Source of the DNA: a virus
Taxonomy: Duplodnaviria > Heunggongvirae > Uroviricota > Caudoviricetes
Length of the DNA: 10,126 nt
IMG/VR virus record: IMGVR_UViG_2541047830_000006
Direction: 5' to 3' (one strand)
Shown: positions 191 through 5,246 of the stretch, piece by piece
Layout: the number at the start of each line of letters is the position of its first letter
Numbering within the stretch: the stretch's first letter is position 1
Notes under the pieces: model-generated
Databases searched by the model: none
Told to the model about the DNA's origin: nothing
The model's input: the letters and a program-made list of their open reading frames with translations, nothing else
Made by a program: the position numbers and the translations under genes

Positions 191-215
191 GTCCGTTCCG
201 TGCCAGGAGCGGACG
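191..215 (+). repeat. Hairpin-forming repeat, copy A (9-bp arms GTCCGTTCC / GGAGCGGAC, loop GTGCCA)
   Basis: Seen directly: 22 of 25 positions identical to 1114-1138, including an exact 16-nt match GTGCCAGGAGCGGACG. The arms pair 9/9 if one G.U pair is allowed. Confidence 0.6.
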
Positions 216-356
216 TTGTAAAGTTTATTTGGAGAATAATGGTTAGAAGAACTATGTAGATCATAGCCCTCTAAAGTCAGTAGTCTTACACCATATAAAT
301 GGTCATTTAGAGATAGTACACCACCTACAAAAAACGAGATAAAGCGTGCAAGCGGC

Positions 357-542
357 ATGAAGATACATAAAATACTCCATTCTGCACTTGATGTTAGGAT
401 GAATACTGACACTCGCTTTGTAAAGATAAAGATGATCTTGAGGATGATTAGTTTATTAATTATCTCCAATGTTTGTTATTTTGTGATGATAAAGATTCTC
501 TGGATTAATAGGATGGTAATTCAATTAAAAGAGACCTTATAG
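357..542 (+). CDS. Hypothetical small hydrophobic protein (61 aa), doubtful
   Basis: ATG-initiated ORF with a hydrophobic stretch (MISLLIISNVCYFVMIKILWI); its stop TAG 540-542 sits inside the bidirectional terminator hairpin. No convincing Shine-Dalgarno upstream (caagcggcATG), and AT-rich DNA gives spurious ORFs easily. Confidence 0.2.
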   Translation: MKIHKILHSALDVRMNTDTRFVKIKMILRMISLLIISNVCYFVMIKILWINRMVIQLKETL

Positions 543-554
543 AAGGCCTCTTTT
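527..554. terminator. Bidirectional rho-independent terminator (stem GAGACC / GGCCTC with one mismatch, loop TTATAGAA, A4 and T4 flanks)
   Basis: Hairpin 531-550 is flanked by AAAA (527-530) and TTTT (551-554), so a U-run follows the stem on either strand. It lies 25 nt beyond the stop (579-581) of the reverse-strand membrane protein gene. Confidence 0.5.
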
Positions 555-578
555 AAGTTATGAGAGCTGATTTTATAT

Positions 579-956
579 TCAATAGAGTATTCTCATCGAA
601 GAAATAACCTCATAAAATGTAAAGACAGCCAGCAAAAAAATACAGATAAAGATAAGGGAAATAGCACACTTAACTAAGGACTGAATCCCCCGAGGTGTTC
701 CCCATGGTTTAGACATTTGGGTTATAACCCAAATAAATAGGGCCATAAAACAGCAAACACCAGCCAATCCGAGCAGAGATATTATGACAACTCCAAACAG
801 ATTTCCAACATCTAGTTTATCTGTTTTTGCAACTAGGGTTAACAAACCAGCAATAATAGTTGCTATCGATATTCCCGCAATGGTTGTGAGATCAGCGATA
901 ACAGCCAGTTTTTCTTTAGTATTTCCTTGAGTAAAAACCTCTAAAATTGATTTCAT
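579..956 (-). CDS. Hypothetical small integral membrane protein (125 aa, about 3 predicted TM helices)
   Basis: ATG start (rc of 954-956) is preceded by AGGTGG (rc of 966-971) at 9-nt spacing. Three long hydrophobic segments (about residues 17-43, 53-78, 91-118). Has its own candidate promoter and terminator; no family recognised. Confidence 0.7.
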   Translation of the reverse strand: MKSILEVFTQGNTKEKLAVIADLTTIAGISIATIIAGLLTLVAKTDKLDVGNLFGVVIISLLGLAGVCCFMALFIWVITQMSKPWGTPRGIQSLVKCAISLIFICIFLLAVFTFYEVISSMRILY

Positions 957-978
957 GGAAAATAACCACCTACTATCG

Positions 979-1008
979 ATTATATTCAGGAACTTTTTAT
1001 CATAACAA
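979..1008 (-). promoter_or_regulatory. Candidate sigma70 promoter for the membrane protein gene (-35 TTGTTA, 18-bp spacer, -10 TATAAT)
   Basis: On the reverse strand TTGTTA is the rc of 1003-1008 and TATAAT the rc of 979-984. The -10 is a perfect consensus; the spacer is at the long end and the leader would be very short. Confidence 0.4.
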
Positions 1009-1113
1009 TATCAGATAGATAAGGATATTGTAATATTTTGGATGATTTAAACTTACTTTTGTAACTCTAATGTCCACTTTTCGCTCACAGCGGACCTTTA
1101 GCTCAGTTACCTC

Positions 1114-1138
1114 GTCCGCTTTGTGCCAGGAGCGGACG
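1114..1138 (+). repeat. Hairpin-forming repeat, copy B (arms GTCCGCTTT / GGAGCGGAC, loop GTGCCA)
   Basis: Seen directly: 22/25 identity to 191-215. All three differences lie in the 5' arm and keep pairing only if G.U pairs are allowed, i.e. as RNA from the + strand. Confidence 0.6.
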
Positions 1139-1875: not shown

Positions 1876-2038
1876 CAATGACTATGAATTTGCTTGCTGG
1901 ATTAATTATCATGCAACCGACAGTTTTGGGTCGGAAGCGGTTAGCAAATTAGTCATTAGTGAGTCGTTATGTCCGTTCATCGCTCAAAGCAGACTGTCAG
2001 ATTTAATAGCGTTTTGATTATGTAACTTGTCAGTTGGA

Positions 2039-2047: not shown

Positions 2048-2087
2048 CTGATGAATCCCCTAATGATTTTGGTAAAAATCATTAAGT

Positions 2088-2128
2088 TAAGGTGGATACA
2101 CATCTTGTCATATGATCAAATGGTTTCG
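2088..2128 (+). promoter_or_regulatory. IS10 pIN region (weak transposase promoter; -10 TATGAT overlapping a Dam GATC site)
   Basis: TATGAT at 2111-2116 overlaps GATC 2114-2117, as expected near IS10 bp 64-70; the -35 is poor, consistent with a weak promoter. Placement is from remembered IS10 biology. Confidence 0.45.
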
Positions 2129-2162
2129 CGAAAAATCAATAATCAGACAACAAGATGTGCGA
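2094..2162 (-). ncRNA. IS10 RNA-OUT antisense RNA from pOUT (approximate coordinates)
   Basis: From remembered IS10 biology RNA-OUT starts near IS10 bp 115 and runs toward the outside end. A TAAAAT -10 (rc of 2170-2175) is correctly placed for a reverse-strand start near 2162. Ends not verified. Confidence 0.4.
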
Positions 2163-3363
2163 ACTCGATATTTTACACGACTCTCTTTACCAATTCTGCC
2201 CCGAATTACACTTAAAACGACTCAACAGCTTAACGTTGGCTTGCCACGCATTACTTGACTGTAAAACTCTCACTCTTACCGAACTTGGCCGTAACCTGCC
2301 AACCAAAGCGAGAACAAAACATAACATCAAACGAATCGACCGATTGTTAGGTAATCGTCACCTCCACAAAGAGCGACTCGCTGTATACCGTTGGCATGCT
2401 AGCTTTATCTGTTCGGGCAATACGATGCCCATTGTACTTGTTGACTGGTCTGATATTCGTGAGCAAAAACGACTTATGGTATTGCGAGCTTCAGTCGCAC
2501 TACACGGTCGTTCTGTTACTCTTTATGAGAAAGCGTTCCCGCTTTCAGAGCAATGTTCAAAGAAAGCTCATGACCAATTTCTAGCCGACCTTGCGAGCAT
2601 TCTACCGAGTAACACCACACCGCTCATTGTCAGTGATGCTGGCTTTAAAGTGCCATGGTATAAATCCGTTGAGAAGCTGGGTTGGTACTGGTTAAGTCGA
2701 GTAAGAGGAAAAGTACAATATGCAGACCTAGGAGCGGAAAACTGGAAACCTATCAGCAACTTACATGATATGTCATCTAGTCACTCAAAGACTTTAGGCT
2801 ATAAGAGGCTGACTAAAAGCAATCCAATCTCATGCCAAATTCTATTGTATAAATCTCGCTCTAAAGGCCGAAAAAATCAGCGCTCGACACGGACTCATTG
2901 TCACCACCCGTCACCTAAAATCTACTCAGCGTCGGCAAAGGAGCCATGGATTCTAGCAACTAACTTACCTGTTGAAATTCGAACACCCAAACAACTTGTT
3001 AATATCTATTCGAAGCGAATGCAGATTGAAGAAACCTTCCGAGACTTGAAAAGTCCTGCCTACGGACTAGGCCTACGCCATAGCCGAACGAGCAGCTCAG
3101 AGCGTTTTGATATCATGCTGCTAATCGCCCTGATGCTTCAACTAACATGTTGGCTTGCGGGCGTTCATGCTCAGAAACAAGGTTGGGACAAGCACTTCCA
3201 GGCTAACACAGTCAGAAATCGAAACGTACTCTCAACAGTTCGCTTAGGCATGGAAGTTTTGCGGCATTCTGGCTACACAATAACAAGGGAAGACTCACTC
3301 GTGGCTGCAACCCTGCTTACTCAAAATCTATTCACACATGGTTACGCTTTGGGGAAATTATGA
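2155..3363 (+). CDS. IS10 transposase (402 aa)
   Basis: Full-length ORF starting MCELDILHDSLYQFCPELHLKRL..., recognised as IS10/Tn10 transposase. ATG lies at element bp 108 as expected and the ORF ends 13 bp before the inside end. Confidence 0.95.
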   Translation: MCELDILHDSLYQFCPELHLKRLNSLTLACHALLDCKTLTLTELGRNLPTKARTKHNIKRIDRLLGNRHLHKERLAVYRWHASFICSGNTMPIVLVDWSDIREQKRLMVLRASVALHGRSVTLYEKAFPLSEQCSKKAHDQFLADLASILPSNTTPLIVSDAGFKVPWYKSVEKLGWYWLSRVRGKVQYADLGAENWKPISNLHDMSSSHSKTLGYKRLTKSNPISCQILLYKSRSKGRKNQRSTRTHCHHPSPKIYSASAKEPWILATNLPVEIRTPKQLVNIYSKRMQIEETFRDLKSPAYGLGLRHSRTSSSERFDIMLLIALMLQLTCWLAGVHAQKQGWDKHFQANTVRNRNVLSTVRLGMEVLRHSGYTITREDSLVAATLLTQNLFTHGYALGKL

Positions 3364-3376
3364 GGGGATCTCTCAG

Positions 3377-3385
3377 AGCTGAGTG
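3377..3385. repeat. IS10 target site duplication, right copy (AGCTGAGTG)
   Basis: Exact 9/9 match to 2039-2047, directly abutting the IS10 inside end. Confidence 0.85.
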
Positions 3386-3400
3386 AGAACAAATCAAGGC

Positions 3401-3432
3401 AGGCGGGCTGATTGCCCGCCTTTTCTTTATTT
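3401..3432 (+). terminator. Rho-independent terminator (8-bp GC-rich stem AGGCGGGC / GCCCGCCT, loop TGATT, then TTTCTTTATTT)
   Basis: Perfect 8-bp stem 3401-3408 / 3414-3421 with a 5-nt loop and a T-rich tract. Before the IS10 insertion it lay about 190 bp downstream of the 158-aa cargo ORF; it now sits between IS10 and the FI promoter region. Confidence 0.8.
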
Positions 3433-3500
3433 GTTGTTTCATCCACTGGCCAGCCAGGTCAAATAGCGTCTCATGCTCTGCACAACAGAAAATAGTTGCA
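3432..3500 (+). promoter_or_regulatory. Putative Ogr-dependent late promoter region for the FI operon
   Basis: Position (between terminator and FI start) is what P2 biology predicts. It contains an 8-bp perfect palindrome CTGGCCAG (3446-3453) and an imperfect TGT-N12-CCA (3435-3452) rather than a clean TGT-N12-ACA site. Transcription start not determinable from sequence. Confidence 0.3.
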
Positions 3501-3524
3501 CCCATTAACCACGGAGTTAAACGG

Positions 3525-4715
3525 ATGAGTGACTATCATCACGGCGTGCAGGTGCTGGAGATTAACGACGGCACCCGCGTCATTTCCACCGTATCCACGG
3601 CCATTGTCGGCATGGTCTGCACGGCCAGCGATGCGGATGCGGAAACCTTCCCCCTCAATAAACCGGTGCTGATAACCAATGTGCAGAGCGCAATTGCAAA
3701 GGCCGGTAAAAAAGGCACGCTGGCGGCATCGTTGCAGGCCATCGCCGACCAGTCAAAACCGGTCACCGTTGTCGTGCGTGTGGAAGACGGCACCGGCGAC
3801 GACGAAGAAACGAAACTTGCGCAGACCATTTCCAATATCATCGGCACCACCGACGAAAACGGTCAGTACACCGGACTGAAAGCCCTGCTGGCGGCGGAGT
3901 CGGTAACCGGTGTTAAACCGCGTATTCTTGGTGTGCCGGGACTGGACACCAAAGAGGTTGCCGTCGCACTGGCATCAGTCTGTCAGAAGCTGCGCGCTTT
4001 CGGGTATATCAGCGCATGGGGCTGTAAGACCATTTCCGAGGTGAAAGCCTACCGCCAGAATTTCAGCCAGCGTGAGCTGATGGTCATCTGGCCGGATTTC
4101 CTCGCATGGGATACGGTCGCCAGTACCACCGCCACCGCGTATGCCACCGCTCGTGCACTGGGCCTGCGTGCTAAAATCGACCAGGAGCAGGGCTGGCATA
4201 AAACGCTGTCCAACGTCGGGGTAAGCGGTGTTACCGGCATCAGCGCCTCTGTATTCTGGGATTTGCAGGAGTCCGGTACCGATGCTGACCTGCTTAACGA
4301 GTCAGGCGTCACAACGCTGATTCGCCGTGACGGTTTCCGCTTCTGGGGTAACCGTACCTGCTCTGATGACCCGCTGTTCCTCTTTGAAAACTACACCCGC
4401 ACCGCGCAGGTGCTTGCCGACACGATGGCTGAGGCGCACATGTGGGCGGTGGACAAGCCCATCACCGCAACGCTGATTCGCGACATCGTTGACGGCATCA
4501 ATGCCAAATTCCGTGAGCTGAAAACAAACGGCTATATCGTGGATGCGACCTGCTGGTTCAGCGAAGAATCCAACGATGCGGAAACCCTCAAGGCCGGAAA
4601 ACTGTATATCGACTACGACTATACACCGGTGCCTCCTCTTGAAAACCTGACCCTGCGCCAGCGTATTACCGATAAATACCTGGCAAATCTGGTCACCTCG
4701 GTTAACAGCAATTAA
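3525..4715 (+). CDS. FI: Phage tail sheath protein (P2 gpFI-like, 396 aa)
   Basis: Full ORF with GGAG Shine-Dalgarno 8 nt upstream. Sequence MSDYHHGVQVLEINDGTRVIS... is recognised as P2-family FI and the length matches the 396 aa I remember for P2. Confidence 0.95.
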   Translation: MSDYHHGVQVLEINDGTRVISTVSTAIVGMVCTASDADAETFPLNKPVLITNVQSAIAKAGKKGTLAASLQAIADQSKPVTVVVRVEDGTGDDEETKLAQTISNIIGTTDENGQYTGLKALLAAESVTGVKPRILGVPGLDTKEVAVALASVCQKLRAFGYISAWGCKTISEVKAYRQNFSQRELMVIWPDFLAWDTVASTTATAYATARALGLRAKIDQEQGWHKTLSNVGVSGVTGISASVFWDLQESGTDADLLNESGVTTLIRRDGFRFWGNRTCSDDPLFLFENYTRTAQVLADTMAEAHMWAVDKPITATLIRDIVDGINAKFRELKTNGYIVDATCWFSEESNDAETLKAGKLYIDYDYTPVPPLENLTLRQRITDKYLANLVTSVNSN

Positions 4716-4727
4716 GGAGCCTGACCG

Positions 4728-5246
4728 ATGGCAATGCCGCGCAAACTCAAGTTAATGAACGTCTTTCTGAACGGCTACAGCTATCAGGGCGTTGCAAAGT
4801 CCGTCACGCTGCCAAAACTGACCCGTAAGCTCGAAAACTATCGCGGTGCGGGGATGAACGGCAGCGCACCGGTAGACCTCGGCCTTGATGACGATGCGCT
4901 GTCAATGGAGTGGTCGCTCGGGGGCTTCCCGGATTCGGTTATCTGGGAGCTTTACGCCGCAACCGGCGTGGATGCCGTGCCGATTCGTTTTGCAGGCTCT
5001 TACCAGCGTGACGATACCGGCGAAACGGTGGCCGTCGAAGTGGTCATGCGTGGACGTCAGAAAGAAATCGACACCGGAGAGGGTAAACAGGGAGAAGACA
5101 CCGAGTCGAAAATCTCCGTGGTCTGCACCTATTTCCGGCTGACGATGGACGGTAAGGAGCTGGTCGAAATCGACACCATCAACATGATTGAGAAGGTGAA
5201 CGGCGTCGACCGGCTGGAGCAACACCGCCGCAATATCGGCCTGTGA
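4728..5246 (+). CDS. FII: Phage tail tube protein (P2 gpFII-like, 172 aa)
   Basis: ORF starts 12 nt after the FI stop, preceded by AAGGAG. MAMPRKLKLMNVFLNGYSYQG... is recognised as P2-family FII; length matches. Confidence 0.95.
   Translation: MAMPRKLKLMNVFLNGYSYQGVAKSVTLPKLTRKLENYRGAGMNGSAPVDLGLDDDALSMEWSLGGFPDSVIWELYAATGVDAVPIRFAGSYQRDDTGETVAVEVVMRGRQKEIDTGEGKQGEDTESKISVVCTYFRLTMDGKELVEIDTINMIEKVNGVDRLEQHRRNIGL

Follow-up and report, generated by a model that had tools for sequence, protein, structure and literature searches.

Palindromic sites at cassette boundaries in the Z/fun slot of a P2-like prophage, and a candidate 200-aa tyrosine recombinase

The 10,126-nt stretch of DNA analysed here (IMG/VR record IMGVR_UViG_2541047830_000006, hereafter the window) comes from a P2-like (Peduovirus) prophage of Escherichia coli, and its positions 1-2047 are 100% identical to ST131-type chromosomes, for example that of SaT040. 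An earlier note on this sequence had drawn attention to two copies of a 25-nt hairpin element, copy A (191-215) and copy B (1114-1138). Both lie inside the variable slot between the tail-fibre assembly gene G and the sheath gene FI, which is the Z/fun locus of P2 and is occupied by fun(Z) in phage P2 itself. Comparative analysis revealed that the copies are very probably cassette-junction sequences and not RNA motifs, and that the membrane-type open reading frame (ORF) and the DUF6650 gene of the slot are two independent cassettes. On sequence comparison, the copies are probably double-stranded DNA core sites of a 200-aa tyrosine recombinase, used for cassette exchange.

Cassette boundaries and their distribution

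Copy A (GTCCGTTCCGTGCCAGGAGCGGACG) and copy B (GTCCGCTTTGTGCCAGGAGCGGACG) agree at 22 of 25 positions, including an exact run of 16 nt, and are directly oriented 923 bp apart, in agreement with the earlier note, which had put the spacing at about 920 bp. Its statement that the resemblance is not due to chance holds as well: a search of the window with three mismatches allowed returned only these two copies, while 0.00 were expected from 200 shuffles. What had been missed is that the repeat unit is a 24-bp palindrome, GTCCGCTYY-GTGCCA-RRAGCGGAC, here termed H2, in which inverted arms of 7-9 bp (GTCCGCT / AGCGGAC) surround the asymmetric centre GTGCCA. Its partner, the palindrome H1, shares these outer arms around the centre TCGCTC, whose opposite strand, GAGCGA, is two bases away from GTGCCA. 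The outer 7 bp and the centre of H2 are near-invariant among 216-281 non-redundant copies. Two inverted arms flanking a short asymmetric centre fit the layout of a simple tyrosine-recombinase core site.

The order of elements in the slot is G, H2 (copy A), cargo 1, H1, an 18-nt spacer, H2 (copy B), cargo 2, H1, the sequence starting with TGTCAGATTT, an IS10 element, a terminator and FI. Copy A of H2 (191-214, + strand, as are the other sites and the spacer) consists of the left arm GTCCGTTCC on the backbone side, the centre GTGCCA and the right arm GGAGCGGAC on the cargo side, followed by GTT. Cargo module 1 (215-1071) is closed by an H1 site at 1072-1095, with the left arm GTCCACTTT on the cargo 1 side, the centre TCGCTC and the right arm ACAGCGGAC on the inter-cassette side. 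The spacer (1096-1113) reads CTTTAGCTCAGTTACCTC; many unrelated loci keep it, in the form CTTYAGCTCAGTKAYMTN, between their H1 and H2. Copy B of H2 (1114-1137) comprises the left arm GTCCGCTTT on the inter-cassette side, the same centre and the right arm GGAGCGGAC on the side of cargo 2, which extends over 1138-1970 and ends at the second H1 (1971-1994; left arm GTCCGTTCA on the cargo 2 side, centre TCGCTC, right arm AAAGCAGAC on the P2 backbone side). The membrane-gene module is therefore not bracketed by the two H2 copies, as had been suggested, since copy B is the left end of the next module and an H1 closes each cargo. The same arrangement, H2 on the left of a cargo and H1 on its right, is found in the window and across Enterobacterales.

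The two cargos also occur separately. Among 5,426 complete genomes of E. coli, P2-like prophages of some strains were found to hold only cargo 1 (query 145-1095), and settings outside phages only cargo 2 (query start 1096 or 1114, end 1985 or 1994). The DUF6650 module, bounded by H2 and H1, is present in an island flanked by insertion sequences (IS) beside a dynamin gene (locus L003) and at a chromosomal locus beside paoD (L004). In strain A30, which has cargo 1 alone, the right arm of H1 is the backbone-type AAAGCAGAC, followed by TGTCAGATTT; in the window the same cargo 1 is followed by an H1 with the right arm ACAGCGGAC and then by the spacer. Other cargos recur in P2, lambdoid (DUF977) and H1-spacer-H2 contexts. 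In P2-like phages the general scheme is a left flank ending in CCTAATCTGACA, H2 in the form GTCCGCTCT-GTGCCA-RRAGCGGAC, a cargo of 0.98-4.1 kb, H1 in the form GTCCGCTnn-TCGCTC-AAAGCAGAC, and a right flank starting with TGTCAGATTTGATAG. At least 30 viral contigs conform to this scheme, as do strain A30, the window and the fun(Z) region of P2 itself. The H2 left arm and the H1 right arm are constant with the phage, while the other two arms vary, as does the cargo.

The breakpoints were located using all pairs of sites with cargo of at least 90% identity and unrelated outer context. At H2 (12 pairs) identity rises from about 0.25 outside the site, through mixed values in the outer arm, to 1.0 from the centre inward, whereas at H1 (24 pairs) it remains at about 1.0 through the left arm and TCGCTC and collapses at the next two positions. 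Identity switches at positions -2 to +6 of H2 and 14 to 16 of H1. Because the outer arm remains in the backbone while the inner one moves along with the cargo, the flanking DNA is, to judge from these identity profiles, exchanged at the site centres. The possibility mentioned second in the earlier note, that the copies mark the boundaries of a recombined cassette, is thereby supported and defined to the site centres, while the RNA reading preferred there is not. Downstream of H2 only RTT is kept, with 200 distinct sequences after it; a conserved TTAAT about 25 nt after H2 was considered and dropped, RTT being the sole conserved part.

An empty P2 slot carrying a single palindrome (AATCTGACAGTC-N8-36-GACTGTCAGATT) had 0 matches in 2.9 million viral contigs, and in a survey of P2 hotspots these were never empty (PMC13586616). 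Simple insertion into a single palindromic attB was therefore dropped in favour of exchange, as the lack of empty slots fits swapping rather than insertion. Phage 186 has neither the slot nor the sites. A DDE transposon or a miniature inverted-repeat transposable element (MITE) was also rejected: the ends resemble 15-bp inverted repeats (GWGCSA-RRAGCGGAC), but the flanks are inverted backbone arms and not direct duplications.

The sites are widely distributed. A 67-mer comprising part of H1, the spacer and H2 has matches in 2,766 of the 5,426 E. coli genomes, at 1-5 places in each, with 129 places on plasmids. A degenerate H2 pattern retrieved at least 120 loci from species-representative genomes and at least 120 from the viral set. 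In enteric bacteria the sites are located after G in P2-like phages, after the DUF977 gene in lambdoid phages, including Shiga toxin (Stx) phages, and at H1-spacer-H2 junctions in islands; H2 also occurs in integrative and conjugative elements (ICEs) and defence islands. The earlier note had considered that the element might prove to be a common genome-wide repeat; it is indeed widespread, but a strict positional relation to cargo genes is kept. All-versus-all clustering of ORFs within 4 kb on either side of 248 loci yielded only context genes, namely P2 tail genes, lambdoid replication and DUF977 genes, and genes for LysR and ABC-binding proteins, and among them no HUH or transposase gene recurs.

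Two further enteric settings were observed. In the Qin prophage of E. coli K-12 BW2952 (L372 4001-5015) the small ORF annotated as ydfV contains an H2 site, GTCCGCTTTGTGCCAGGAGCAGCC, and about 990 bp further downstream an H1-like site, TTCCGCTTCTTGCTCTTAGCGGAC, comes after flxA, with relBE-hokD adjacent; flxA therefore lies in a cassette of the same kind. In an IS26-bounded resistance region of plasmid pESCOTC_24 (L009 3001-3054), a degenerate H1-spacer-H2 (76% identity) separates tet(A) from a gene for shikimate dehydrogenase.

Outside the enteric bacteria, an identical 24-mer H2 is abundant in Xanthobacteraceae, Bradyrhizobium and related metagenome-assembled genomes, and in Nitrosomonadaceae. 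In the alphaproteobacterial genomes H2 is the third of three direct hairpins with the centres GGGTCA, ACCCCCG and GTGCCA, repeated with a period of 45-46 nt in cargo-free intergenic arrays that share the arms GTCCGCTTT/AAAGCGGAC (for example L017, L020, L043, L064, L073 and L087, with others among L010-L129, Pseudolabrys included). Read in frame, these hairpins encode the peptides MSALGQKRT, MSALPPKADI and VRFVPKADI. No Rfam family and no paper was found for the arrays. A second family of sites, with the same arms and the centre CGGCCA, was found in 37 viral contigs (L335-L371) and at least 15 contexts, against an estimated 0.4 or so expected by chance.

A 200-aa tyrosine recombinase next to the sites

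Several non-P2 loci contain, 1-3 kb from the sites, a gene for a 200-aa 'site-specific integrase' (one example is WP_001610790). PF00589 is its only domain (64-69 bits, with a cut-off of 27), there being no N-terminal domain. Homologues of 56-100% identity keep the catalytic Arg, Lys, His-x-x-Arg, His and Tyr residues and the motifs DSKLRGCD, QQKT, HSxRRT, LLGH and VRY. The best named resemblances are to XerA, XerC, XerD, Fim-type invertases and IntI, all far under the cut-offs, and a sequence search of the PDB found no close homologue. Identity is 76-96% from E. coli to Proteus, Pantoea, Idiomarina, Pseudoalteromonas and ICEs of the Cycloclasticus type, and the gene is present in 908 of the complete E. 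coli genomes (about 17%).

The gene and the sites are joined at a fixed spacing. Among 33 full-length genes of at least 80% identity with enough flank, the centre and right arm of H2, G(T/C)(G/A)CCA-nnAGCGGAC, begin 25-27 nt past the stop codon in every case, and the H1 centre TCGCTCATAAGGGAC is located 53-56 nt ahead of the ATG in 23. The DNA beyond these sites differs, with 15 distinct flanks downstream and 11 upstream. Upstream of the gene the order is a variable arm, TCGCTCA, TAAGGGAC, about 40 nt and the ATG; directly past the stop codon it is GGTTGYCAGGGCTGCAACAGCAGCCCT-GTGCCA-RRAGCGGAC-RTT, followed by variable sequence. The gene spans the interval from an H1 centre to the next H2 centre and therefore stands where the window has its 18-nt spacer (1096-1113), in the inter-cassette position.

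To a limited extent, the site centre varies with the recombinase clade. In a clade of recombinases at 58-65% identity the half-site past the stop codon is ACCGGCCA-RAAGCGGAY with the centre CGGCCA, and full CGGCCA palindromes are present in two loci of this clade (L285:3200 and L287:8730). A homologue at 56% identity is followed by the hairpin types of the alphaproteobacterial arrays.

Arrays containing the gene were found in several genomes. In Proteus mirabilis the array is located downstream of icd, amid AbiJ-, SIR2/STAND- and Mrr/STAND-type genes. On the chromosome of Idiomarina sp. X4 (L260 8001-15534) the recombinase gene and its H2 half-site are followed by a 7-kb PhoPQ-EptA cargo and an H1 end. 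The genes of this cargo encode PhoQ/PhoP-type regulators, an EptA-type phosphoethanolamine transferase, PAP2, diacylglycerol kinase and sulfatase, a set resembling the neighbourhoods of mobile colistin-resistance (mcr) genes. In one ICE the recombinase gene is placed between arsenic- and copper-resistance blocks.

The gene is also present in the Z slot of three P2-like contigs, in the same cassette as the membrane ORF of the window. Two such Z-slot cassettes (L142 2391-4822 and L162 3743-6174) consist of genes for a 280-aa protein (phrog_4167) and the recombinase, the last 11 or so residues of which are replaced, together with the cargo 1 membrane ORF. Cargo 1 of the window may be a reduced form of this cassette.

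Further sequence elements accompany the sites. About 20-30 nt upstream of backbone-type H2 sites stands TGGCACAG(A/G)G, the reverse complement of the end of the H2 arm plus the centre (CTCTGTGCCA); in the window this inverse motif is at 165-174, with its counterpart at 197-206, and it is also found in the lambdoid flank CATGGCACAGGGTAGATCTGGCGTGGTT. The recombinase-adjacent site has a hairpin of its own, CAGGGCTGC/GCAGCCCTG, running into the centre. These elements could represent an accessory binding site or an alternative pairing.

Proposed mechanism and alternative explanations

In the proposed mechanism, the recombinase would act in trans on the sites of the window, the arms serving as its binding sites and the centre as the crossover region. 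Because the centres differ, only H2 x H2 and H1 x H1 recombination would take place. A circle excised between like sites could integrate at a like site, generating tandem arrays such as that in the window. The latter would result from a single H1 x H1 integration into a prophage holding cargo 1 alone, the incoming circle consisting of the right arm of H1, the spacer, H2, cargo 2 and the left arm of H1. Later deletion by H2 x H2 or H1 x H1 recombination would remove the older cassette, so that the net result is a swap with no empty intermediate. A wider proposal can be offered tentatively, as a possibility: a mobile 200-aa recombinase with the catalytic domain only, together with at least two kinds of non-cross-reacting 24-bp sites, would constitute an uncharacterised integron-like system of cassette exchange in P2-like and lambdoid phages, ICEs and defence islands across Proteobacteria and would provide the missing mechanism for the swapping of accessory and anti-phage genes between phage hotspots such as P2 Z/fun and unrelated mobile elements.

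Several observations weigh against this interpretation. The evidence for exchange is wholly comparative. A search confined to the window found no recombinase gene or remnant in it; within 8 kb, the gene accompanies about 10 of some 130 enteric and viral H2 loci and 1 of the 37 CGGCCA sites, and H2 matches occur in 2766 E. coli genomes as against 908 with the gene. As so few sites are near the gene, action in trans has to be assumed. The co-variation of the centre with the recombinase clade is based on few independent loci. The two inner arms of cassettes are only weakly complementary (3.44 matches against 3.27 +/- 0.08 after permutation, a value reached in 43 of 2000), so a circle with a restored palindrome is not supported. 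The cargo-free alphaproteobacterial arrays look more like repetitive extragenic palindromic (REP) sequences than like cassettes, and the model does not explain the conserved 18-nt spacer or the upstream motif TGGCACAGAG. Finally, short conserved palindromes could serve as plain patches for homologous recombination.

This last idea leads to the alternative that survives best, although it is unlikely: that no dedicated enzyme exists and that REP- or terminator-like palindromes provide patches of 24-66 bp of homology for RecA, for Red/RecT-type or for illegitimate recombination. It draws on the distance of the gene from most sites, on the high-copy, intergenic alphaproteobacterial hairpins without cargo and on the weak complementarity of cassette ends; in addition, mosaic boundaries always lie at the edges of shared sequence, so that a step in identity is partly expected. 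However, crossovers in such patches should be spread over the 24-66 bp and leave complete units at both ends, whereas in P2 slots a single H2 stands on the left and a single H1 on the right, with the arms partitioned at the centre. Nor does recombination between homologous patches account for the constant distance from stop codon to half-site in 33 of 33 genes, for the tracking of centre and recombinase clade, or for arms and centres that are near-identical across proteobacterial orders and classes.

It is quite improbable that exchange proceeds through a single strand, either as folded DNA in the manner of integron attC sites or by an HUH/rolling-circle enzyme, with H1-spacer-H2 acting as one attC-like site with alternative pairing of its arms. 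The sites are hairpin-forming palindromes, and the four arms at 1072-1137 can pair as a-b/c-d or as a-d/b-c, giving an attC-like stem, bulge, stem and loop; the unlike centres GTGCCA and TCGCTC would present no obstacle if one strand were exchanged. The loop-closing pair 9-16 of H2 also has a strong excess of T.G (104-120 against 9-10), though position 16 is simply a purine, and the other stem pairs that can be judged without bias are free of strand asymmetry. Moreover, no HUH or Rep gene recurs near the sites, H1 often folds poorly on either strand, the recombinase is far under the cut-offs of integron integrases and without their extra domain, and homology breaks twice, at the H1 centre and at the H2 centre, instead of once per composite site.

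The structured RNA motif of the + strand favoured by the earlier note, whether a processing site, a protein-binding site or a 3'-end stabiliser, is very improbable, given the lack of an Rfam match, a U-tract and strand bias and the mismatches in H1. The folding it described does occur: as + strand RNA both copies form a stem of 9-10 bp with a GTGCCA loop (-17.7 kcal/mol for copy A and -18.4 kcal/mol for copy B; z -3.8 and -3.5), and the minus strands fold more weakly. The three differences between the copies are, as described, T/C transitions in the 5' arm opposite G, which keep pairing through G.U. Copy A also lies within the 3' untranslated region of the late V-G operon, and hairpins of the REP type stabilise mRNA 3' ends. 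The 'compensatory' pattern nevertheless deserves little weight: as 5 of the 9 left-arm positions face G, any C/T transition there keeps pairing, and the chance that three of three differences preserve it, calculated from the sequence, is about 12%. All three differences are in the 5' arm because this arm belongs to the backbone in copy A and to the inter-cassette piece in copy B, while the centre and the 3' arm belong to the cargo.

No Rfam covariance model matched either copy, even at E<=10, and the terminator scan called no U-tract or terminator at copy A, which is followed by GTTGTAAAG, or at copy B, followed by GCTAACCTG. At pairs 7-18 and 8-17, the inner pairs where the retrieval pattern allowed both kinds of mismatch, an excess of + strand G.U over C.A is absent among the roughly 215-280 non-redundant copies (T.G 30-37 against C.A 21-31 at 8-17, and 6-7 against 7-9 at 7-18). 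In H1 sites there is a + strand C.A mismatch, and the second H1 of the window (1971-1994) does not fold on this strand (-1.3 kcal/mol, z +0.3). The 6-nt centre and the outer arms are the most conserved parts whatever the adjacent gene or its orientation, and the downstream genes are on either strand, which places many copies outside any defined transcript. A coding explanation for the enteric copies was rejected too, since 191-215 is covered by no ORF of 40 aa or more and a start codon is missing.

Other features of the slot, earlier records and known systems

The window begins with the 3' end of the tail fibre assembly gene, the homologue of P2 G (1-129, + strand, stop codon at 127-129), as defined by the RefSeq annotation of the identical ST131 prophage, and its positions 1-214 have 93% identity to Peduovirus P24A7b. 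A weak Rfam match to IS009 at 1-92, inside this gene (29.4 bits against a gathering score of 117, E 3e-4), is probably not meaningful. The backbone left flank (130-190, + strand) forms the inner portion of the P2 Z-region's 'left inverted repeat', and both P2 and at least 30 P2-like viral contigs have kept it. Its motif TGGCACAGAG corresponds, in reverse complement, to the end of the H2 arm together with the centre.

Cargo module 1 contains a membrane-type ORF of 125 aa (579-956, minus strand; phrog_4155, function unknown), a promoter-like site found by the promoter scan (1008-979) and, directly downstream of the ORF, a hairpin at 525-556 formed by a near-perfect 14-bp inverted repeat, TTAAAAGAGACCTT / AAGGCCTCTTTTAA. 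The hairpin is probably a bidirectional terminator belonging to cargo 1; its sequence also adjoins a truncated recombinase gene in two other loci (L273 and L275). Cargo module 2 (+ strand) encodes the DUF6650 protein (ORF 1399-1875; Pfam PF20355; phrog_29952, function unknown). PADLOC gave no match for the cargo proteins, and PHROGs returned only families of unknown function.

The backbone right flank (1995-2047, + strand), which starts with TGTCAGATTTAATAG, repeats the left flank in inverted form, and with it the 'right inverted repeat' of the P2 Z-region begins. The extended inverted repeat of about 90 nt in the window scores 55, as against 37 +/- 4.8 for shuffled sequences, whose maximum was also 55. 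The right flank is split by a complete IS10 of 1329 bp (2048-3376, + strand; transposase ORF 2155-3363), identified from its junction sequences, with its RNA-OUT at 2093-2162 on the minus strand (Rfam, 98.8 bits) and a 9-bp target duplication, AGCTGAGTG, at 2039-2047 and 3377-3385. IS10 is missing from the otherwise identical SaT040 prophage and is a later insertion unrelated to the cassette system. The remaining right flank, an intrinsic terminator and the late promoter region of FI occupy 3377-3524 (+ strand), as determined by the terminator scan and comparison with annotated P2 features. The terminator (3401-3421) is the only one called in the slot and is located directly ahead of the FI late promoter; the sheath gene FI (3525-4715, + strand) and the tube gene FII (4728-5246) follow.

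Part of this organisation was recorded before. In GenBank entries AJ512681 and AJ512683 ('proviral Z-region' of P2-EC48 and P2-EC58; 2004) the end of the annotated 'left inverted repeat' coincides exactly with that of H2, and the start of the 'right inverted repeat' with that of H1; these repeats are about 90-115 bp and not the 24-bp core. The flanking repeats of P2 and the general idea of site-specific recombination are prior art. The title of Nilsson et al. 2004, to which the two entries are presumably to be attributed, already invokes site-specific recombination. In the literature consulted, which did not include the text of Nilsson et al. 2004, no description was found of the structure of the 24-bp core, the two centre types, the tandem junction or the link to a recombinase, nor of the spread to lambdoid phages, ICEs and islands. 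Literature searches with DNA strings of the sites and with the peptides encoded by the repeats returned no relevant paper. The main papers on P2 hotspots (2022 and 2026) mention neither the repeats nor a dedicated recombinase, and that of 2026 leaves the mechanism of exchange open (PMC13586616). According to this September 2026 survey, unrelated mobile elements and 'cryptic islands' have contents in common with the hotspots, and the mechanisms named as possible are limited to transposons, homologous recombination and illegitimate recombination (PMC13586616).

Hotspots of P2-like prophages, including Z/fun, are a major reservoir of anti-phage and lysogenic-conversion genes. H2 and H1 provide a testable mechanism for their exchange, comprising a sequence signature that fixes cassette boundaries to the base and a candidate enzyme. 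If true, it explains why the same cargo is found in P2-like phages, lambdoid phages including Stx phages, ICEs and chromosomal islands, and sites linked to a recombinase could account for the trade in accessory and defence genes between phages and genomic islands. A scan for H2 and H1 would offer an inexpensive means of delimiting cargo in thousands of genomes and of finding new defence genes there.

The resemblance to known systems is partial in each case. With REP/BIME sequences and their RAYT transposases the sites share the form of short GC-rich intergenic palindromes, and the alphaproteobacterial relatives are high-copy, clustered and cargo-free. However, there is no GTAG head, and no RAYT/HUH gene is recurrent within 4 kb on either side, although whole genomes were not searched for RAYTs. 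Further, REPs are species-specific while H2 is near-identical across classes, and enteric H2 belongs to the accessory genome, where it bounds cargo at 1-5 places per genome. The FimB/FimE invertases of about 200 aa are similar in size, in having little beyond the catalytic domain and in acting with short inverted repeats, but the recombinase scores 25-27 bits against their cut-off of 222, no inversion of cargo is seen and the centres of H2 and H1 stay distinct.

Cassette exchange between heterospecific lox or FRT sites is alike in its proposed logic, where shared arms with incompatible centres block excision and allow a segment to be swapped; such exchange is artificial, whereas the natural incompatibility of H1 and H2 is putative. 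The pdif modules of Acinetobacter plasmids, which depend on XerC/XerD, likewise have oppositely oriented sites of arm-centre-arm structure whose inner arms move with the module; cargo and inter-cargo segments are both modular, empty sites are rare and the recombinase is Xer-like. They differ in the 11-6-11 layout of their sites, compared with arms of 7-9 bp and a centre of 6-10 bp here, and H2 and H1 bear no resemblance to the dif consensus. The enzyme is also a dedicated mobile one of 200 aa (XerC 49.6 bits against a cut-off of 335, XerD 32.1 against 330), and the system is hosted by phages and islands in Enterobacterales and other Proteobacteria.

From integrons the system differs in several respects. 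Its recombinase of 200 aa has neither an N-terminal domain nor the IntI-specific insertion and scores far below the IntI models (TIGR02249, 15.9-17.2 bits against 265; NF011946, 17.6 against 435). The sequence of H2 and H1 is conserved, whereas attC sites conserve only structure; RYYYAAC/GTTRRRY boxes are absent from the sites, with only RTT after H2. Two types of site bracket each cassette, homology breaks at both, and the arrays are found inside phages, ICEs and islands. The likeness lies in the layout: a tyrosine recombinase gene abuts a non-palindromic primary site, arrays of cargo with variable promoters and with defence-type genes are joined by hairpin-forming junctions of about 60-70 nt, and many arrays have no integrase nearby, as is the case for CALINs. 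With the H2 half-site 25-27 nt past the stop codon, 15 distinct flanks behind it and arrays in Proteus, E. coli and Idiomarina, the resemblance to integrons is functional only.

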